In this document: positions 4,601-62,481 of the stretch, one piece after another | Numbering within the stretch: position 1 is the stretch's first letter | How the letters are laid out: each line of letters begins with the position of its first letter | Origin: Escherichia phage FEC14 | Strand: one strand, 5' to 3' | DNA length: 64,000 bases | Sequence record: MG383452 | Program-made: the position numbers and the translations under genes | Notes under the pieces: generated by a model | What the model was told of the DNA's origin: nothing | The model's input: the letters and a program-made list of their open reading frames with translations, nothing else | Database searches by the model: none

Positions 4601-5166
4601 TTCCGTTCCCTATAAAATTTGACGAATGGTTGCCAACCTTCAAATGGGTTAACAAATTCATAATCAACTTTCATCTCATCAATGAAAGCCTCTATGTCGT
4701 CCTCTATGATACCGCCGCGATCTGCCTTTGAAATGCGGGTGATGGGACATTTAGTGCTCAGCGCCCATTCATATTCTTGAGGCGTCCGTAGATCACTCAC
4801 AATATAATGAATGTTAGGATTCTGTTCAACTAATGGGAGTTGGTAACGCTTAAAGAAAGACAAAAACAGATCCGGTTGGACATAACGAAGCCCCGTATCG
4901 CTGCCGAGATGAAGCCAGATCTGCCTTGGGGTTAATCCCTTGGGGTTATCTGGGTGAACATATGGCAAGTCCTTGATATCGTCCTCTACTTCCTCTGGCA
5001 ACCAAGGATAGATGTAATGAGCCACCCGACGCAACTCGTCCGAGAAAGATAAGCGCTGGATGTCCATATCACCCTGTAAATGGTGATAGCTGATGAGGGA
5101 CTCCAAACAGAAGTCCTTGCCGGAGCGCTTGCGCCCCGTAAAGAATTCAAGGTTCGGATACATCAT
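4597..5166 (-). CDS. 1: deoxynucleoside monophosphate kinase (T4 gene 1-like)
   Basis: 189 aa; N-terminal P-loop FFTGRKRSGKDF matches T4 gp1 FLSGVKRSGKDT. Confidence 0.55.
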   Translation of the reverse strand: MMYPNLEFFTGRKRSGKDFCLESLISYHHLQGDMDIQRLSFSDELRRVAHYIYPWLPEEVEDDIKDLPYVHPDNPKGLTPRQIWLHLGSDTGLRYVQPDLFLSFFKRYQLPLVEQNPNIHYIVSDLRTPQEYEWALSTKCPITRISKADRGGIIEDDIEAFIDEMKVDYEFVNPFEGWQPFVKFYRERK

Positions 5167-6212
5167 ACTGCACCTTCCAAGAACTTGGGATCAACGATCT
5201 TGCGGTCAATCGGAGAATGGGCGAGCGCGATGTTCAAACCATGATCCTGAATCAGGTTCATGTTGATGAGCTTGTCGTTCAGTTTGCAGTACAGGCAGTA
5301 CGCCATCTGCACGATCAGGCCGCGATCCGCGCCGTACTCCTTCAGGTGAGCGACAACAGTTTCCCACGGGCTGCCGATATCACAGTGATGAAGCACACCA
5401 GTGAACAGATTGCGGATATGGTTCTGGTTGGTCACGTTCGTGAAGTAGATCATGGAGTTGATGAAACCACCAGTGACTTTTGTGTCTTTGGTGATCTTGC
5501 CAAGCTGCTTCTGGCTGACTTCATTGTTGTAGTAATGAAGATTGTTAGAGAATAGCTTGTACTGACCGACATCAACATCTAACACCTGAGCAATCACTTC
5601 CTGAAGAATAGAGAACTCAATGAAGTTGATTGAACTCATCCCCCACAGAACATCCTGTGAGCGGTTGATGACCGTCAGGTTCAGACGACCTTCAACGATG
5701 GCGAACAACAGAGCCAGGTTACACACCATGTCCTTAGTCTTTGCTTCGCCGCTCTCGCTGAACTTCGCCAGACCAGCATCCGAATCTAGAGCCGGATCAT
5801 AGATGGTGAGGTACGCTTGACGAGTATTTGGGTTCTTGCGTAGGCGGTTGATAACGCTATCCAGCTGGCCATGGGCGTACAGACGCGGACCATAAGCGGC
5901 TCGCCATGTATGGCCATTATCAGAGAAGTTGGCGGCGCGAGGGAGGACACGGGACAAGAAGCGCACATCATCGCGCCCAGACAGAACCCAGAAGGTCTCG
6001 CCGATGGCAGCAATAGCCGATGAGTTGCGTCCTTCAACAGACAGCCAACGGTCGCGGATGTCAGAGACGGTGATCGTCACGCCATCAATAAAACGAGTGC
6101 CGTCTGTGTTGATCTCCGCGTTACCAGGGTCAGATTCAATCCCGTGCTCACGGATAGCCAAGACAGCCTGTTTCAGCATGTCGTTGTTGTTAATTGCTTT
6201 GATTTCCATCAA
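5163..6212 (-). CDS. thymidylate synthase / dCMP hydroxymethylase superfamily enzyme; putative pyrimidine deoxynucleotide hydroxymethylase
   Basis: 349 aa; nucleophile Cys in KDMVCNLALLF followed 20 residues later by RSQDVLWGMSSINF, same spacing as T4 gp42 MCTN...RSND and TS PCH...RSxD...FN; NTRQAYLTIYDP loop; no TS-type His after Cys. Confidence 0.7.
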   Translation of the reverse strand: MMEIKAINNNDMLKQAVLAIREHGIESDPGNAEINTDGTRFIDGVTITVSDIRDRWLSVEGRNSSAIAAIGETFWVLSGRDDVRFLSRVLPRAANFSDNGHTWRAAYGPRLYAHGQLDSVINRLRKNPNTRQAYLTIYDPALDSDAGLAKFSESGEAKTKDMVCNLALLFAIVEGRLNLTVINRSQDVLWGMSSINFIEFSILQEVIAQVLDVDVGQYKLFSNNLHYYNNEVSQKQLGKITKDTKVTGGFINSMIYFTNVTNQNHIRNLFTGVLHHCDIGSPWETVVAHLKEYGADRGLIVQMAYCLYCKLNDKLINMNLIQDHGLNIALAHSPIDRKIVDPKFLEGAV

Positions 6213-9189: not shown

Positions 9190-9894
9190 CTAACCATTTT
9201 TGTGTTTACGACGTGCGTCCTTCCAAACAGACATCTGACTCTGTTTCTGGAATCGAGCAGTACGCATAAACAAAACGACCTCCCAATATTGCGGTTCAAT
9301 TTCATAAAGTTGTGAACGAAATTGATCTGCGCGGTATAATTTGACACAATGATTGTACAAAGGGTGATTCGCAAACCGCTTTAGCGCATCCCAGGTAAGT
9401 CTCAAACGTGTTTTAGAACGATATGCCCGTTCATTTCTCAATTTAATGAGATCTTCAAATACCAACAATCTGAGTTTAGGCGGTAAATAATGGAGGTTTA
9501 GGCCATAAAGATAGGTCACACCACGTTCACCGAATTTCACCCCATCCCCCTTCACAAAATTGAAGAAGAACACCAGAGGATACATATCCCAATACGGGAG
9601 TTCATCTTTAGTCAGCGCATCATATTTGAAATAATACATGCGACCAACAATATAACGCACACCCTGAACAGGACGTTTATTTTCAGCGAATGCTTTCATC
9701 ATGTGATTCGGAGATAAGTTAGCATCTTTCGACACGCGCTCCATAAACCACACATGAGAACGACGGATATTACGCTTCGCTTCCGGCCCAAAATGTTGAC
9801 GATATTTGCGGATGTAACGCTTGACCAGTTCTGGGGCGTCCATCTCGGCGGGAAGCAACAACGGGTCTTCTTCACCCATAGCGTTCTTAGCCAT
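9190..9894 (-). CDS. hypothetical protein (234 aa)
   Basis: ORF track; AAGGAG RBS upstream of ATG; divergent from late gene at 9949. Confidence 0.5.
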   Translation of the reverse strand: MAKNAMGEEDPLLLPAEMDAPELVKRYIRKYRQHFGPEAKRNIRRSHVWFMERVSKDANLSPNHMMKAFAENKRPVQGVRYIVGRMYYFKYDALTKDELPYWDMYPLVFFFNFVKGDGVKFGERGVTYLYGLNLHYLPPKLRLLVFEDLIKLRNERAYRSKTRLRLTWDALKRFANHPLYNHCVKLYRADQFRSQLYEIEPQYWEVVLFMRTARFQKQSQMSVWKDARRKHKNG

Positions 9895-9906
9895 TTGTCA
9901 ACTCCT

Positions 9907-9914
9907 TATAAATA
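9907..9914 (+). promoter_or_regulatory. T4-type late promoter TATAAATA
   Basis: exact TATAAATA about 35 nt upstream of the plus-strand gene start. Confidence 0.5.
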
Positions 9915-9948
9915 TCAACAGATATATTATTTAAATGGAGTCCTCATC

Positions 9949-10893
9949 GTGGAAGACTATCGCAATTTTCTAACGCAACTGCTTCAACGGGGTATTTCCC
10001 GCAAGAACAGATTTCGTGTTACAATTCCGTTGCCGCCTGGGATATTTGATTCCAATGCAACACTAGCAAATGATGGGAACGCGTATCCTTCATCTTCATC
10101 ATTTGGGGATCTGTTCAAACAAAGCGCCCGTATTGTAAACGCATTCTTTGGAGGGACAAACCAAACATCTCGTTCCCTGCAAATGATGTGTATGGTCGCA
10201 TCTTTACCTGGTACAGGGATTGACACTACTCCCATGACCAACAACGGCAACCACATTAAAATGCCGAACAACAAGACGAACATTGATCTGGAGTTGTCGT
10301 TCCTCCTCGCCAACGATTATTATGAAAAGTCGGTCATGGACAAATGGAAGAATCTGATATTCGACCCATACACAACCAAGATGGGTTATTATGAAGATTT
10401 CGTGACCGATATTTGTATAGAACAAATGGATACAGAAGATCAGGTTGTTCATCGCGTTTATGTGACTGAGGCTCACCCCATCAACTTCAGTTCTATAGAT
10501 CTGGATAAAAGCGCCGCCGATCAATTTAATCAGTACAACATTTCCTTTTCTTATAACAAAGTATTATCGGAGACTGAATATGAAACGCGCAGCCTCGCCA
10601 GCGATTTTCTTCCTTTGGGTATTACTGATGCTCTTGCTTCCGGAGACTGGGAAACCGCTGCGTCAAAAGCCGGACAGCTGTATAAAAAGATCAAAGAAGG
10701 AAACTTCACAGGTGAAGCCCTGCTGGCTTATAAGCAACTCGATCAGCTTGTAAACAATCTGGCTGGTATCAGCCTGGCTGATTTCGAAAGGATCTCTATC
10801 GGCATCCAGAGGGATATCTTAGGCAATGATAACCTGACGGCGTCTGAGAAGAGTAGTCTGTTGGGATTGTTACAGGATGTTGTCAAAAACTAA
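9949..10893 (+). CDS. late-expressed protein, probable virion (baseplate/tail) component; start uncertain
   Basis: long plus-strand frame ending 10893; first in-frame ATG is far downstream, so GTG 9949 preceded by GGAG (9937-9940) is proposed; the 9754-9948 part of the tracked ORF overlaps the minus-strand gene and is rejected. Confidence 0.45.
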   Translation: MEDYRNFLTQLLQRGISRKNRFRVTIPLPPGIFDSNATLANDGNAYPSSSSFGDLFKQSARIVNAFFGGTNQTSRSLQMMCMVASLPGTGIDTTPMTNNGNHIKMPNNKTNIDLELSFLLANDYYEKSVMDKWKNLIFDPYTTKMGYYEDFVTDICIEQMDTEDQVVHRVYVTEAHPINFSSIDLDKSAADQFNQYNISFSYNKVLSETEYETRSLASDFLPLGITDALASGDWETAASKAGQLYKKIKEGNFTGEALLAYKQLDQLVNNLAGISLADFERISIGIQRDILGNDNLTASEKSSLLGLLQDVVKN

Positions 10894-15722: not shown

Positions 15723-16052
15723 GCTTACCTGTATTACCGTTTAAGAAAGGATTGTTTAACCCGAAATTGCTATAACACCATTGTTCCTGATATGAATGTT
15801 GTGTAAATCTGTTTTGAATTTGTTTTGAAACAAAAATAATGCTTTTCTACGCATGTTCTGAGGTGTACAGTATTTTCCTCGCCTTTATGCCTCCATGGCA
15901 TTGGAATGGGACTGCCTGTCAAGGCGGTGTTACGAGCTTCAGCGAGTAGGAACGAAAAGAATAAAGGTTGAACGGAAGCAGAGCTTCCTATAATATATTA
16001 TTCGACAGATTTCAAATCCCCGCCATAAATATCACATGATTCTAATTGACTA

Positions 16053-29642: not shown

Positions 29643-29650
29643 TATTTATA
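29643..29650 (-). promoter_or_regulatory. T4-type late promoter TATAAATA (minus strand)
   Basis: plus-strand TATTTATA = minus TATAAATA, 24 nt upstream of ATG 29618. Confidence 0.5.
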
Positions 29651-57611: not shown

Positions 57612-58007
57612 TTATTCGCTTTTTGCCCGACTTGGGCGAATAGTGTATTTTGGAACCAATTTCCACTCAGAAACTTGGTCATGTTTTACAACTTTGATCC
57701 GAGACATGTCAGCCACTTCGGTTATTTGTTCCGGATGCAAGATCTTAACCATATTCCATTGCTCCAGAAGCCGTATAATCCGATTCATACGCAGGACATC
57801 TTCACGCGTAAAGCCGTTGTAGTGCCCATCTAGCATGAACAAATGCTTGAAATGCACGATGTGATATCTGCCAAATTTATGCAGGATATGGCACGTTTGA
57901 TACAAGGTGTTAGGCTCTTGACGAGTGTTAACCCCTATCCGACTCAGCGTTTCCTTGATACCCAGGAAAATCCCTGGTTTGTCTTGGTTCAATTGAACTT
58001 CAACCAT
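57612..58007 (-). CDS. regA: RegA translational repressor
   Basis: LYQTCHILHKFGRYHIVHFKHLFMLDG and EWKLVPKYTI match T4 RegA; start at MVEVQLNQ aligns with T4 MIEITLKK (tracked ORF has 23 extra codons). Confidence 0.7.
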   Translation of the reverse strand: MVEVQLNQDKPGIFLGIKETLSRIGVNTRQEPNTLYQTCHILHKFGRYHIVHFKHLFMLDGHYNGFTREDVLRMNRIIRLLEQWNMVKILHPEQITEVADMSRIKVVKHDQVSEWKLVPKYTIRPSRAKSE

Positions 58008-58105
58008 ACAGTCAACAATGCTGGCCTCATCGTTGACAGCTGAAAGTTTTAAGATGTCCAGCGTATTACGCGCCATGACTCATACCCCTTTAACAATTAT
58101 TTGAA

Positions 58106-58528
58106 TTACTTAGCCTTGCGCGGTTTGGCTTTTTCGTTGCTGTTGGAACGTTCGACCTTCGCCTTGATTTCAGCCAGGACTTCTTTCGGCAGGAATCGAA
58201 CATATTCTGAAGCCTTTTCAGGACTGATGTAATAATACTCAGAAATCAATTTCACATCAGGATCCATAGCTCCCTTCTTAGACCACTTGTCATAGCGACG
58301 TTTTGCCGGAATGCTATGAAACGCCAGGTTCCATTGCATCCAAGGAGTAATGGCATGGAAGCGGTTCATTTGTTCGGCAACCACAAGCGTGTCTTTACTC
58401 TGAGCAAGGCCGCGCCGAGTCATGAAAGGATCAAATGCCTTTCTGATTTCGGGGTCTTCGGTCATCAACAGATTCTCTTTGGTGCTATTCAACGCACCGA
58501 GGTAATCGAACAGTGACGGAGCGGCCAT
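58106..58528 (-). CDS. 62: clamp-loader small subunit, gp62-like
   Basis: 140 aa; position between 44 and regA; PAKRRYDKWSKK resembles T4 gp62 PRGKRYGKWAK. Confidence 0.6.
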   Translation of the reverse strand: MAAPSLFDYLGALNSTKENLLMTEDPEIRKAFDPFMTRRGLAQSKDTLVVAEQMNRFHAITPWMQWNLAFHSIPAKRRYDKWSKKGAMDPDVKLISEYYYISPEKASEYVRFLPKEVLAEIKAKVERSNSNEKAKPRKAK

Positions 58529-58532
58529 AATA

Positions 58533-59522
58533 TTACTTCCATTTGATGTTGAGCATGACGTTAGTCAAGAAGTAAACGCCGTGTAACCAGACGTCGCCGA
58601 CGGAACGATGTTCAATCTGAGACTGACCACAGACGCATACCAGATCAGGGATTGACTCGTTTTGAATCAAAGGAGTCTTTTCCTTGTTCTGGGGAACGCA
58701 GAAATGGAAGAAACGGGAATAAAAATCTTCAGTGATGTAGTTTTGGTTGTCGGTCACCCACTGCTTCATCCCAGCCCAATCATTGGTTTTCAGGAAATCA
58801 ACCAACGCTTGGAATTCCCCTGCTTTAACCTGTGCCAGAGCGCGTTCATCGATTTTACCAAACGTGGTGGCATTATCCTGAAGAGTTCCCATAATTTTGC
58901 GATTATCTGGGAAATATGATTTCACAATGGAAGCAATTACACCAGCTTCATACGGAATGCCTTCCTCTGTCAGGATAGTTGCGCAACGACGCATGAATTG
59001 GAGTTTAACTTCATCTGCTTCCTTTTCAGACCAGATAAAATCAATTTCACGACAGCGGGAACGCAGAGGTTCATTAACGCGCTGTTTCGCATTAGTCGTC
59101 AGGATGAAGGAGCAGTTTTTGGAGACTTTCTCTACGATGCCTTTCAGGGATTCCTGTGCCGCCATGGAAAGTCGCTCAACTTCATCAAGGATAACGACTT
59201 TGCGGCCACCGAAAACACTGACGCCAGTTGCGTATTGAATAACGCGGTCACGAATGACATCAATGCTGTTATCCAGTGACGCATTGATCATCAACGGTTT
59301 GATACAACCGATTTCGTTACACACAGCCAGAGCAGAAGTAGTCTTGCCCGTACCAGGCTGAGGGGAATAGAACAGCATTGAGGGGATGTTTCCATTGCCT
59401 GATGTAACATAGCCATGGATTTTTGCACGGACGTCTGAAGGGAGGACGATCTCATCCAGATTGTCAGGGCGATATTTGTTTTCCCACGCATATTGATCTG
59501 TGACGATAGTGATGTTAGACAT
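58533..59522 (-). CDS. 44: clamp-loader AAA+ ATPase, gp44-like
   Basis: 329 aa; WENKYRPDNLDEIV, P-loop PQPGTGKTT, DEVERL, SRCREI match T4 gp44/RFC. Confidence 0.85.
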   Translation of the reverse strand: MSNITIVTDQYAWENKYRPDNLDEIVLPSDVRAKIHGYVTSGNGNIPSMLFYSPQPGTGKTTSALAVCNEIGCIKPLMINASLDNSIDVIRDRVIQYATGVSVFGGRKVVILDEVERLSMAAQESLKGIVEKVSKNCSFILTTNAKQRVNEPLRSRCREIDFIWSEKEADEVKLQFMRRCATILTEEGIPYEAGVIASIVKSYFPDNRKIMGTLQDNATTFGKIDERALAQVKAGEFQALVDFLKTNDWAGMKQWVTDNQNYITEDFYSRFFHFCVPQNKEKTPLIQNESIPDLVCVCGQSQIEHRSVGDVWLHGVYFLTNVMLNIKWK

Positions 59523-59540: not shown

Positions 59541-59569
59541 AACGTTTCAAAGGGCGGGGAAACCCCGCC
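59541..59569 (-). terminator. stem-loop/terminator GGCGGGG-AAA-CCCCGCC downstream of gene 45
   Basis: perfect 7-bp GC-rich stem then CTTTGAAACGTTTT on minus strand. Confidence 0.5.
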
Positions 59570-59599: not shown

Positions 59600-60268
59600 T
59601 TAATCCAGCTGCATGCCGACGTAATAGTTGATGGTGCCGTCTGCGGATTGGAAGTTAACCAGTTGCATTTCGGCACAGGCGCGGATCACATAGTTGCCTT
59701 CGATCATTTTCAGGTTGACCACATCAACAGGCATAGCAAAATCACCCAGAGTTGTTTCACCCAACTCAACAGTGTAATCGTTGGAATTGTCGATAGTAGT
59801 AGTCGTGCCCACCAGACGAGTTTTACCGCCGCTGGCAACCAGACGTACAGTTTTGTGGCCCAGAGTAGAACAGGCGCGGGTCAGCTCTTTCATTTTTTCA
59901 GGAGTGACTGTTGCTTCAAATTCTACAGACGGGAGATCGATGCTGTCTGCCGGAACGACAGTCAGTTCTTTAGCGGAACGCCAGAATTGCAGTTGGGAGT
60001 TTTCACCTTTCAGCAAAATGTGGTCTTCCGACATTTCAATTTTACCGCCTTTAAAACTCGGCAGACGCTGGATTGCCAGCAATTTGGTCAGATCCAGAAT
60101 CGGGAATTCGAACGGGAAGTCTTCGTCAATGTCGGCAATAGCGATAACTGTACTGGAATCGTTAACAGTGCGCAACTTTTTACCAGGTGCCAGAACGATA
60201 GAGGGGCAGATGGTTTCAAAGTTAGCCAGCAGTTGTAAAGTGCGTTCGGAGAGAGTGATCTCTTGCAT
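59600..60268 (-). CDS. 45: sliding clamp, gp45-like
   Basis: 222 aa from MQEITLSERTLQLLANF (T4 MKLSKDTTALLKNF) with GAGGA RBS; tracked ORF begins at upstream TTG. Confidence 0.85.
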   Translation of the reverse strand: MQEITLSERTLQLLANFETICPSIVLAPGKKLRTVNDSSTVIAIADIDEDFPFEFPILDLTKLLAIQRLPSFKGGKIEMSEDHILLKGENSQLQFWRSAKELTVVPADSIDLPSVEFEATVTPEKMKELTRACSTLGHKTVRLVASGGKTRLVGTTTTIDNSNDYTVELGETTLGDFAMPVDVVNLKMIEGNYVIRACAEMQLVNFQSADGTINYYVGMQLD

Positions 60269-60283
60269 TAGTTGTATCCTCAA

Positions 60284-60607
60284 AATATAGTGGGGTTCAA
60301 GTCATATTTGACGCAAATTAGTATCGCGTGTTTGTAGTTATAGAACAAGTGATAAATTGCCCTACGCGCGATAAATAAATGCCTGACGGCATTTATAATA
60401 TTCTGTTTTAATAAAACCTTTCTTTATCAGTCTACTCGCTTCGCTCGTGATAATACTCGTTGCTCGCAAAGCTCACAACTCGTATATTACGCACGGATTG
60501 TTCAACAAGAAAGCGATTTTTATTCAACAAGTAAAATATTTTATTTGGTCTAAACAGAGCATGACATTATTATGTAGCCAAGTTTGCTAACACGTGAGAA
60601 ATAATAT
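60284..60607. promoter_or_regulatory. AT-rich divergent control region upstream of gene 45 with palindrome over a TATAAT and CTCG-repeat array
   Basis: TAAATGCC-TGAC-GGCATTTA palindrome at 60376-60395 overlapping TATAAT 60394-60399; repeated (T/A)ACTCG(C/T)T motifs 60430-60490. Confidence 0.3.
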
Positions 60608-60973
60608 ATGAAGCAATTTGTTGGTTTATACGCAGTAGGGGAAGACCAAGAAGCAATTCTTTCCATATCAGAACAACGTTCGTCATTAAAAGGCGTTTAT
60701 TTACAAAGCCTTTTCTGTACATCGGGGTTTATTGTGTCACCGATGTTGGTGATACCATTACTCCCAAATAACAAAGGTCTGTATGTTGGCATTATTCAAC
60801 AAGGCCAGGCGCGGGAAGTGAAAGTTGTTCCACTGCTGGCATCTAATGAAGAATTGTTTTCTCAGATTCTTGAGCCGAAAGTGCTACAACAATGTATTGG
60901 CACGATCGACTGTTTATTTGGTTCCAACAAAGAAGGCGAGGCAACCCCCGCCTATGTGAATCAAGATATTTGA
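60608..60973 (+). CDS. hypothetical protein (121 aa)
   Basis: ORF track; weak RBS; only plus-strand ORF in this neighbourhood. Confidence 0.3.
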   Translation: MKQFVGLYAVGEDQEAILSISEQRSSLKGVYLQSLFCTSGFIVSPMLVIPLLPNNKGLYVGIIQQGQAREVKVVPLLASNEELFSQILEPKVLQQCIGTIDCLFGSNKEGEATPAYVNQDI

Positions 60974-60978
60974 AATGG

Positions 60979-62481
60979 TTAGAGCGCCACTTTTTTCATT
61001 TTAACAGGGTGGCGCTCCATAAGATAAAATTTATATCTCTCATGAGAATGCCTGAGAGCATGGTTGTAGGAACCGTTGTAACGCAGGTTGTCTACCAGGT
61101 CCCAGATTCGCGCAACATCCTTAGAGGAATGCTGACGCATCAAACGCCCCAATGTCTGTATAACACGGATATAAGATTTGCTGGGATGGGCCAATATCAG
61201 ATGATGGAGTTTTTTGATAGATACGCCCTGTTGCATAGTACCATATGATGCTAACAGTGTTATATCTTCCCCTTCTTCCATAGCAGCCTGAATCTGTTTA
61301 CGAACTTCTGTCTTGACTTCCCCGTTGATGACGAATACGTTTTTCTTGACTGCCGATAGCATTTCATAAACCAACATCATGTGTGCATCGATACGTTCGA
61401 ACATGACTGCGACGTTCCCTTTCAAAGATAGAGCCATTCGGGCTATCAATTCATTGCGGCGTTCGTTAGCAATGAGGAATTCTATTTCCTTTTGATACTC
61501 AGCACCGTGCATTTCAATACAGTCTGCCATAGGATGTATGACTTCAATCATATTAACATTGATGTCTGCCGCATATCCTAGATCGATTAAATCGCGCGCT
61601 GTAATAATTTTATGATATGCGCCAAAGTGAGCAACGACTTGTAACCCTGCGACCTTTGTATTCGCCAGGGTTCCGGTTACTCCCAAACGTTGATCAGCGT
61701 TAATACAGTTGTTCAAGATGTAAGACAATTTATCTGATTTTGATGTATGTACTTCGTCAACGACGATATCTCCAAATTGATGGAACCACTCTTTGGGTTG
61801 GTTCTGGATACCTTGCCAAGTTGAAATAACTATGGGTTTGAAAATCTCTTTCGTTGCCCCTTCGTATATTGTCTGGACGTTCATCAATGGCTTCCATTCT
61901 GTCCCGTGGCTATATTCTTCGAAGTTGTCATACAACTGAGTCACCAAATGAATGGATGGTACAACAATTAACGTCCTCAGATTACTTTCGAGGGCATCTC
62001 TGCGTTGCCTGTAGTAACGCGCCATGATGTACAAAATAAAGGATTTGCCAGCACTCGTGGCAGCTTCGAGGACACATCTGCTTTGGCGTATTGCTGTGGC
62101 AACAGAATCAAATTGATAATCGCGGACAATCGCTTTTTGATATTGTTTGTTTTCGTCTCGGTACACCGCATTCAATGTATCGATGAACGCATGAATTTCT
62201 TCATCCGGAATGTCTTGAATATATTTTAAGGCCGGATCTAATTTGATGGTGTAACCGTTCATCTTACAGAATTTGAACACCTCAAATAACAGGCCGATGT
62301 CGATAAGCCCAGAACTCTTTGTGAACAACCGCACTACGCCGTCCCATTTACTGAACGGATTCGGTTGGAAATTAGGATCTTCAAATTTGAAGTAATCGTT
62401 GAGTTCTTCACGGATATAATCCTCGGCAAGGATCCGCATTCTAACTTCGTTCACTTTGACTATTTGGATCTCAGACATCAC
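60979..62481 (-). CDS. uvsW: UvsW SF2 DNA/RNA-DNA helicase
   Basis: 500 aa; PTSAGKS-like motif I (EAATSAGKS), DEVH box, WQGIQNQPKEWFHQFG matches T4 UvsW WQTVVKQPKEWFSQFG. Confidence 0.8.
   Translation of the reverse strand: MMSEIQIVKVNEVRMRILAEDYIREELNDYFKFEDPNFQPNPFSKWDGVVRLFTKSSGLIDIGLLFEVFKFCKMNGYTIKLDPALKYIQDIPDEEIHAFIDTLNAVYRDENKQYQKAIVRDYQFDSVATAIRQSRCVLEAATSAGKSFILYIMARYYRQRRDALESNLRTLIVVPSIHLVTQLYDNFEEYSHGTEWKPLMNVQTIYEGATKEIFKPIVISTWQGIQNQPKEWFHQFGDIVVDEVHTSKSDKLSYILNNCINADQRLGVTGTLANTKVAGLQVVAHFGAYHKIITARDLIDLGYAADINVNMIEVIHPMADCIEMHGAEYQKEIEFLIANERRNELIARMALSLKGNVAVMFERIDAHMMLVYEMLSAVKKNVFVINGEVKTEVRKQIQAAMEEGEDITLLASYGTMQQGVSIKKLHHLILAHPSKSYIRVIQTLGRLMRQHSSKDVARIWDLVDNLRYNGSYNHALRHSHERYKFYLMERHPVKMKKVAL

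Follow-up and report, generated by a model that had tools for sequence, protein, structure and literature searches.

A conserved strand-specific hairpin module in the divergent spacer upstream of the sliding clamp gene of Escherichia phage FEC14 and related Ackermannviridae

Results and discussion

We examined the non-coding spacer that separates the sliding clamp gene gp45 from a divergent 121-aa open reading frame (ORF121) in Escherichia phage FEC14, within a 64,000-nt stretch of sequence record MG383452 (the window). The most conserved non-coding sequence of this locus is a predicted strand-specific hairpin module, not the repeat array described in an original prediction, and the module is, as judged by sequence comparison, a three-copy family whose members precede the clamp, gp6-like and gp5-like gene clusters. 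We suggest, at roughly even odds (about 0.5), that the copy upstream of gp45 (locus A) is a small early-type transcription unit yielding a structured RNA or leader. The main rival is an element acting at the level of DNA, possibly a replication origin. Coordinates of all features are collected in Table 1.

Conservation of the spacer

The part of the window from 59600 to 61000 is 99.6-99.7% identical to Kuttervirus phages (Ackermannviridae), among them Salmonella phage Det7 as well as GG32 and PhiSH19. Translation places the gp45 start at the ATG at 60268-60266, which leaves a spacer of 339 bp (60269-60607). This spacer aligns over its full length with those of Kuttervirus, Agtrevirus, Limestonevirus and Taipeivirus at 74-100% identity. 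At the same time, 44-59% of the four-fold degenerate sites of gp45 are identical between clades (66% even inside Kuttervirus), and the ORF121 protein is ~39% identical between Kuttervirus and Aglimvirinae. Block conservation over distances at which gp45 synonymous sites are nearly saturated indicates that the spacer is under strong selection. The conserved blocks comprise the gp45 leader, TAGTATCGC and TTATAGAACAAGTG with a variable 10 nt between them, the palindrome (in two subfamilies only), the entire "array", TTGTTCAACARGAAAG, TTGGTCTAAACA and TAWTAT. Small ORFs do not account for these blocks, since 1-, 2- and 5-nt indels between genera disrupt all frames. Sites for CRP, DnaA, IHF, LexA and sigma32/54 and the lacO half-site, compared by eye only, did not fit.

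When each block was searched for with mismatches in ~158 kb (the window plus the rest of Det7), all proved unique, and a promoter class or multi-site regulon built on them was rejected on that ground. This search missed the paralogues described below, which were found later with a structure-aware pattern. We conclude from the comparison of relatives in four clades that the spacer is a genuine and complex divergent control region: it is strongly constrained and carries candidate promoters for both flanking genes, while the particular TATAAT, operator and repeat-array proposals of that prediction did not hold up.

Two hairpins in place of the repeat array

On the + strand, the units ACTCGCT (60434), ACTCGTT (60455) and ACTCGTA (60478) recur, and CTCG occurs five times in the 48 nt of 60435-60482. 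None of 2000 shuffles reached even four copies, and the cluster is the only one of its kind on either strand of the window; the repeated ACTCG units previously noted at 60430-60490 are indeed present and non-random. RNAalifold, however, found two hairpins, HP1 and HP2, on the gp45-sense strand, where every one of these CTCG motifs reads CGAG. At the hairpin positions that are not palindromic, GA invariably faces GA between a flanking C and G, the setting in which tandem sheared G·A pairs occur. A kink-turn, in which a 3-nt bulge precedes tandem sheared G·A pairs, was rejected, the G·A loops being symmetric 2x2 loops without a bulge.

Pairing is maintained throughout the alignment. At locus A, the 15 pairs examined in 11 distinct variants gave standard pairs in 165/165 cells, and the three pairs that vary all stay paired, twice by C-G/U-A exchange with both sides changed and once by U-G/U-A. 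The outer pair of HP2 changes from C-G to U-A in Aglimvirinae. The apical loops vary freely (UUU, GUUA or GAA in HP1; GAA, or GUA in IME250, in HP2). Merging HP1 of loci A and B gave 11 pairs, of which four are changed on both sides, and 88/88 paired cells, against 23-62% in slid registers (15-62% over the slid controls of both tests). In a divergent IMG/VR contig, the inner stem shows yet another, third type of pair. Most HP1 and HP2 pairs never vary, so the covariation support is moderate.

The structured strand can be told from the mismatches. In most genomes the + strand version of the helix contains U·C/C·U loops and an A·C mismatch: the majority U-G pair becomes A·C there, and all three G·A loops become U·C/C·U, which identifies the - strand as the structured one. 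An array of iterated duplex sites accounts poorly for these data, as its first ACTCG unit reads ATTCG in Aglimvirinae and the spacing between units varies by 0-5 bp. Further to that, a protein site on duplex DNA predicts neither the constancy of GA opposite GA nor compensatory stem changes; CGAG/CGAG tandem G·A loops in two - strand hairpins explain the pattern, and the compensatory changes support this.

In Escherichia phage PH4 (1590-1730 of the stretch compared), the HP1 apex has been converted to GCGAAGC, so that GAGCGAAGCGA is present twice, and the AT-rich linker holds a tandem duplication of CTTTATTAAAGATAATAA.

Three loci with a shared promoter-like element

The pattern GAGTTGTGAG-N5-6-CGANCAACGA, representing HP1, occurs exactly twice in each Ackermannviridae genome in IMG/VR and nowhere else in that database. 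The second occurrence (locus B) lies in a divergent spacer upstream of a gp6-like baseplate wedge gene, where a promoter-like element is followed by HP1, GCAGCC-UCCAU-GGCUGU, CUGCCU-GUCA-AGGCGG, an HP2-type clamp, an AT-rich stretch and a CGCGCG block. Across genera, locus B shows 85-94% identity, and its HP1 matches that of Agtrevirus locus A exactly. The outer stem has a wholly different sequence in HP1 of locus A and of locus B (AUAC/GUAU versus CUUC/GAAG or CUUU/AAAG) but remains paired.

A third copy (locus C), in a 506-bp spacer upstream of a gp5-like hub/lysozyme gene, consists of a promoter-like element, GCC-UCCAU-GGC, CUGCCU-GUCA-AGGCGG, an HP2-type clamp (ACGAGC-UUCA-GCGAGU, 15932-15947) and a terminal hairpin. 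The latter, GGAAGC-AGA-GCUUCC (15974-15988), is followed by UAUAAUAU and covaries with GGAUGC/GCAUCC. Loci B and C have 49 nt in common at 96% identity, and their extra hairpins carry compensatory changes. HP2-type clamps close diverse apices (GAA, UUCA, AAC or a 5-bp extra stem). The three loci lie at ~21, 66 and 136 kb in Det7 coordinates, that is ~44, 70 and 43 kb apart on a 157-kb genome. A late-promoter-like box, CATAAATA, is found at 16025, after locus C.

Each locus is preceded on the hairpin strand, and in the same orientation, by an A-tract, N3-4, CTTT(T)CT, 17 bp and TAnnnT: TAAAAATCGCTTTCTTG...TAATAT at locus A (P_up), TAAAAACTACTTTTCTAC...TATCTT at locus B and CAAAAATAATGCTTTTCTAC...TACAGT at locus C. 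The spacing from A-tract to -10 is identical (27 nt) at loci A and B, and the P_up blocks are invariant across clades. Across genera, each locus keeps its -35 block together with the T, A and final T of its -10; what differs is the spacer and the inner -10 positions (TAATAT/TATTAT/TACTAT at A, TATCTT/TATCGT/TATGCT at B, TACAGT/TATGGT at C). TTTTCT/TTTCTT differs by one or two changes from the TTTACT of the phage's other intergenic promoters.

The sequence TTRTTCAACAAG occurs three times within 300 bp of the + strand (60498-60509, 60520-60531 and 60792-60803) and nowhere else in the window at ≤1 mismatch; the first copy holds an 11-bp palindrome, TTGTTCAACAA. We rejected this direct repeat as an operator, as the first copy is the only one conserved in all clades and is better explained as the -35 region of P_up.

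A search of 185,579 prokaryote genomes for the HP1 pattern returned three matches, all in metagenome-assembled genomes (MAGs), about what is expected by chance (roughly 9). In two of these, on Alphaproteobacteria MAG contigs (2381-2405 and 2007-2032), the HP1-like hairpin is GAGTTGTGAGCGAAGCGAACAACGA or a variant of it and has CCGGGTGAGGGG after it; these two share flanks and have no Rfam match. Overlapping the element at loci A, B and C or the MAG matches, the Rfam 15 covariance models gave no match with E < 1, and no tRNA or tmRNA was detected at the three loci. In Vibrio phage Kuja, a distant member of the family whose gp45 is 33% identical, two long hairpins lie upstream of gp45 (2165-2300 of the stretch compared). 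The gp45 spacer of Kuja also has TTTCTTGTTTGAA, resembling the -35 block of P_up.

A proposed small transcription unit or a DNA-level element

In our preferred interpretation, the spacer would hold at least three separate elements: P45 with the gp45 leader, P2 (possibly also P1) at ORF121, and a small unit between them on the gp45-sense strand. The early-type promoter P_up would read leftwards through HP1 and HP2, then through an AU-rich stretch into the palindrome, which would serve as a 3' hairpin or leaky terminator, so that the unit would stop ~20 nt short of the P45 -35. Its transcription would yield a structured RNA of ~110 nt or, where the hairpin is missing (as in Taipeivirus) or read through, a structured upstream leader of the clamp operon. 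We read locus A in this way on account of the promoter-like element shared by loci A, B and C and of unit C ending in a covarying hairpin followed by UAUAAUAU. Conservation, compensatory pairing and paralogy can be seen directly in the alignments, as can the shared element; from them we infer that the unit is transcribed, where its RNA would begin and end, and that it has a role.

This arrangement resembles known small structured RNAs and operon leaders, with its own promoter-like element, two covarying 5' hairpins, an AU-rich stretch, a 3' hairpin with a U-rich tail, and an intergenic position combined with conservation above that of neighbouring coding DNA. It differs from them in having no Rfam match, in its serial 5'-CGAG/CGAG tandem G·A stems and in a terminator that is weak, or absent in one genus, and the element is known from sequence only.

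A number of observations weigh against a transcribed RNA. No transcript, transcription start site, RNA-seq or origin mapping for Ackermannviridae was found in the literature searched. The P_up -35 is a poor match to TTGACA, and the base of HP1 shares positions with the -10 at locus A; an RNA begun 7 nt downstream would lose the outer stem and part of the middle one. The fold energy of HP1-HP2 with RNA parameters is no better than that of shuffles (z = -0.4, -1.6, 0.0). The palindrome has a 9-bp stem with only three G-C pairs, and its U-tract is broken; other terminator-like hairpins of the phage are stronger, and in Taipeivirus the palindrome is lacking. At locus B a clear terminator is not present in all genera. 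The loops GAA, GUA, GUUA and GUCA fit the DNA mini-hairpin rule GNA/GNNA better than RNA GNRA/UNCG. Lastly, the Kuja hairpins, ...UAUAG GA GC GGA GC GA CUAUA... and GGA GC GAA GC GGA, follow the HP2 design but stand antisense to gp45.

Some of these points suit a DNA-level element, either an R-loop-type replication origin or a single-strand initiation signal, which we regard as possible, if rather unlikely. Here the promoter would fire, HP1 and HP2 would fold into highly stable mini-hairpins on the displaced non-template strand and stabilise an RNA-DNA hybrid over the AT-rich stretch, and the hybrid would prime replication, as at T4 oriF/oriG, the three copies being three origins. DNA mini-hairpins of the type GCGNAGC / GCGNNAGC are described at the complementary-strand origins of phages G4, St-1 and alpha3 (GCGAAGC, GCGTAGC and GCGTTAGC), in RSF1010 ssiA (CCGAAGG) and in the hairpin promoters of the N4 virion RNA polymerase (PMC13037366). 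The same apices are seen in our element: GCGAAGC in HP2 and in PH4 HP1, GCGTAGC in IME250, GCGTTAGC in fGh-Ecl02, and CCGAAGG at the apex of the palindrome in Aglimvirinae; GCTTTGC, the apex of HP1 in Kuttervirus, does not conform to the GCGNAGC / GCGNNAGC motif. As in those systems, the motifs are confined to one strand and adjoin a promoter-like element and an AT-rich stretch. The known systems, in contrast, operate on single-stranded DNA of phages or plasmids, or together with an N4-type RNA polymerase.

The layout of the loci bears on the same question. In every case the hairpins occupy the non-template strand relative to the promoter-like element, and an AT-rich stretch and a CGCGCG block come after them; the overlap of HP1 with the -10 and start site at locus A, awkward for an RNA fold, also speaks for a DNA structure, as does the flipped orientation relative to gp45 in Kuja. 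Against this, 8 of the 11 locus-A variants place a G·T in the middle stem, which destabilises DNA and is neutral in RNA, folding with DNA parameters did no better than shuffles (z = +0.8, -0.25), and unit C ends like an RNA gene, in a covarying terminator-like hairpin.

T4 oriF (uvsY) and oriG (34) are R-loop origins that use MotA-dependent middle promoters. Loci A, B and C resemble them in that a promoter-like element precedes an AT-rich segment that should unwind easily, and the phage, too, has UvsW and a T4-type replisome; we know of no non-template-strand hairpins reported for the T4 origins, unlike the loci described here. That the three modules are Ackermannviridae replication origins, at which an R-loop locked by G·A mini-hairpins primes a T4-type replisome, is in our view unlikely. 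The spacing of the loci around the genome would suit origins, and a promoter-like element with an AT-rich stretch is present at all three, initiation itself being a prediction; gene orientation, though, does not switch at loci A or C.

Vi01-like phages (Kuttervirus, Agtrevirus, Limestonevirus and Taipeivirus) have been isolated widely and find wide use in biocontrol and therapy, and their transcription and replication signals are known only through T4 pattern matching; the clamp-operon promoter calls made here are based on conservation. The hairpin module adds a new, well-conserved non-coding family to this practically important group. Whether it acts as RNA or as DNA, an element more constrained than the neighbouring proteins offers a handle on early regulation or replication initiation. 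An origin would amount to a new design in which an R-loop mechanism like that of T4 is joined to hairpin signals hitherto known in single-stranded phages and plasmids.

The palindrome and its TATAAT

The inverted repeat between the hairpins and P45, ATAAATGCC-TGAC-GGCATTTAT (arms 60375-60383 and 60388-60396), is present as originally described, with arms one base longer (9 nt) than the 8 reported, and a TATAAT does overlap its 3' arm. Perfect inverted repeats with arms of ≥9 nt and loops of 3-8 nt arise in 1.6% of 2000 dinucleotide shuffles of the spacer, and the whole window has eight of them. The fold energy is -10.8 to -12 kcal/mol (z = -2.5 to -2.9; - strand, -10.8 and z = -2.9). The arms are invariant in Cvivirinae and Aglimvirinae around a loop that reads TGAC in Kuttervirus and TTC in Aglimvirinae (GUCA and GAA on the - strand); in Taipeivirus, unrelated AT-rich sequence with a fold z of ~0 takes its place.

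In the model that follows from the original prediction, the palindrome is the operator of a dimeric regulator lying over a promoter -10, with the ACTCG units as iterated protein sites or clustered promoters on double-stranded DNA; we find this model improbable. It would account for arms that are invariant between Cvivirinae and Aglimvirinae without compensatory change, as expected if the sequence itself is read, for a centre ~71.5 bp upstream of the inferred P45 start, which is a class-I activator position, and for a region that is unique in the genome, like an autoregulatory site (no second copy was found in ~158 kb of genome sequence). However, the half-site spacing shrinks from 4 to 3 bp, the site overlaps no conserved promoter, and it is missing in Taipeivirus though P45 and the array are kept. 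The TATAAT itself has no -35, reads TATAGT in some Kuttervirus and TATGGA in Aglimvirinae and is absent in Taipeivirus; it is probably not a promoter element. ORF121, for its part, shows no DNA-binding fold. A one-base change in half-site spacing is harmless to a hairpin, which argues that the palindrome behaves as a hairpin rather than as a dimer operator.

On the - strand the stem is followed by UUAUCGCG, or by UUAUUUAU if a shorter stem is drawn; the terminator scan calls the + strand version only. No covariation is seen in the fold of a hypothetical + strand antisense RNA with its end at the palindrome.

Another reading places a T4-type late promoter of gp45 within the palindrome (TATAAATG, - strand, 60397 to 60390), but we consider this very improbable. 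This box matches TATAAATA at 7/8 positions, T4-type late promoters are clearly in use elsewhere in the phage, and gp55- and gp33-like genes are reported for this phage group. However, its counterpart in Aglimvirinae is CATAAATG, and Taipeivirus has none. It also lies ~122 nt from the gp45 ATG, as against 25-40 nt for the perfect TATAAATA boxes upstream of genes at 9907 (+), 14704 (+) and 29650 (-). The late promoter at 29650 directly abuts a terminator hairpin, and the ORF at 9754-10893 probably begins later, near 9950.

Candidate promoters of gp45 and ORF121

The gp45 promoter supported by phylogenetic footprinting is P45, a candidate sigma70-type promoter situated away from the TATAAT discussed above. 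Its hexamer blocks are invariant in 10 genomes of four clades, with a spacer that varies in sequence and keeps its length, and are weak by comparison with the consensus (3/6 and 4/6). The gp45 leader that would follow shows no covariation-supported fold. In T4, RegA binds translational operators on the gene 45/44 mRNAs. The leader and start of gp45 are likewise invariant here and AU-rich around the AUG, and we deem it reasonable, given a RegA gene in the same operon, that the leader is plausibly a RegA translational operator.

For ORF121, the best candidate promoter is P2, with conserved hexamers and a variable spacer. The leader of ORF121 on the + strand has no covariation-supported fold. An alternative is that the array is the core and upstream part of a + strand ORF121 promoter, either P1 or the "putative middle promoter" labelled within the array (CTT / TAATAC) in the record of Dickeya phage LIMEstone1 (HE600015), conserved through contacts with RNA polymerase or an activator. 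ORF121 does require a promoter, and TTGYTC, 17-18 bp and TATAnT are found in all clades with variation at position 5 of the -10 only. Still, we consider it quite unlikely: the P1 spacer and ~25 bp upstream of its -35 are invariant, which promoters do not require, and the HP1 arms and the - strand -10 account for both hexamers. Locus B has the same hairpin without an antisense -10, and P2, which is nearer ORF121, displays the classic pattern of conserved hexamers and variable spacer. P1 may thus be a by-product of its hexamers lying within HP1 and the P_up -10.

LIMEstone1 has an orthologous spacer, and its promoters were called in silico by pattern match to the T4 consensus (PMC3296691). Its record also marks a - strand -10 near ORF121. 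These calls ignore conservation and structure, leave the hairpins and the palindrome unmarked and differ from P45, P_up and P2; the "middle promoter" is a consensus pattern match only, and its TAATAC lacks the final T. A T4 middle (MotA-dependent) promoter, taken as (a/t)(a/t)(a/t)TGCTTtA centred at -30 and 11-13 bp from a TAnnnT -10, was rejected, as TTGCTCGCA, which has the form TGCTC or TGTTC, is 14 bp away from the -10. To our knowledge, MotA and AsiA are confined to T4-like phages.

Table 1. Features of the gp45-ORF121 region and of the two paralogous loci (window coordinates unless stated otherwise)
Feature	Position	Strand	Details
RegA-type translational repressor gene	57612-58076	-	Pfam PF01818, E = 4e-35; four genes downstream of gp45
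gp62	58106-58528	-	
gp44	58533-59522	-	
gp45, sliding clamp coding sequence	59600-60268	-	first gene of 45-44-62-regA cluster; identified by translation, tblastn and annotation in relatives
gp45 5' leader	60269-60313	-	near-invariant, ~45 nt; Shine-Dalgarno sequence GAGGA 60277-60281
P45, candidate sigma70-type promoter (phylogenetic footprint)	60320-60348	-	-35 TTGTTC 60343-60348, 17 bp, -10 GATACT 60320-60325; inferred start ~60313
CGCGCG block	60365-60370		conserved; closes AT-rich stretch; similar block after AT-rich stretch at locus B
Palindrome	60375-60396	-	reads AUAAAUGCC-GUCA-GGCAUUUAU then UUAUCGCG; proposed 3' hairpin or weak terminator
TATAAT of the original prediction	60394-60399	+	probably not a promoter element
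AT-rich linker	60397-60433	-	sequence and length variable
HP2	60434-60448	-	5'-AC GA GC GAA GC GA GU-3'; tandem G·A loop and GCGAAGC apex
HP1	60453-60485	-	5'-AUAC GA GUUGU GA GC UUU GC GA GCAAC GA GUAU-3'; three stems, two tandem G·A loops
P1, alternative promoter	60460-60488	+	TTGCTC, 17 bp, TATATT (TATAAT in relatives)
P_up, early-type promoter-like element	60484-60522	-	A-tract 60517-60521, -35 TTTCTT 60507-60512, 17 bp, -10 TAATAT 60484-60489
P2, candidate ORF121 promoter	60545-60573	+	TTGGTC, 17 bp, TATTAT (TAATAT in relatives), variable spacer
ORF121 (121 aa, phrog_4255)	60608-60973	+	divergent from gp45, convergent with uvsW
uvsW	60979-62481		convergent with ORF121
Locus B	Det7 KP797973 ~135,950-136,140 (5054-5240 of stretch compared)	+	divergent spacer upstream of gp6-like gene
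Locus C	15831-15996	+	spacer upstream of gp5-like gene

Neighbouring genes

ORF121 has no Pfam domain, and its AlphaFold model, although confident (predicted local distance difference test, pLDDT, 83), matched no solved structure (best E = 0.7) and, among viral models, only its own orthologues. As a regulator it was rejected on these grounds. Only 5 bp separate the stop codons of uvsW and ORF121, and two terminator-like hairpins, at 60934-60953 (-) and 60983-61018 (+), each sit within the coding sequence of the opposing gene.

Between gp45 and gp44, a GC-rich hairpin, GGCGGGG-UUU-CCCCGCC followed by CUUUGAAACGUUUUAUC (59553-59569, -), may be an internal attenuator of the clamp operon or serve to stabilise its RNA. 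Phages CAU_YEP3 and PH4 have homing-endonuclease genes between the same two genes, at 93-749 and 89-769 of the respective stretches compared, and in Limestonevirus uvsW is interrupted by an intron-like endonuclease gene. Public records of the relatives contain annotation errors, with ORF121 often named "clamp loader subunit" and RegA left hypothetical; in the Det7 record the gene 30-32 labels are shifted, gp45 is named "gp44-like" and gp44 is named "gp61-like".

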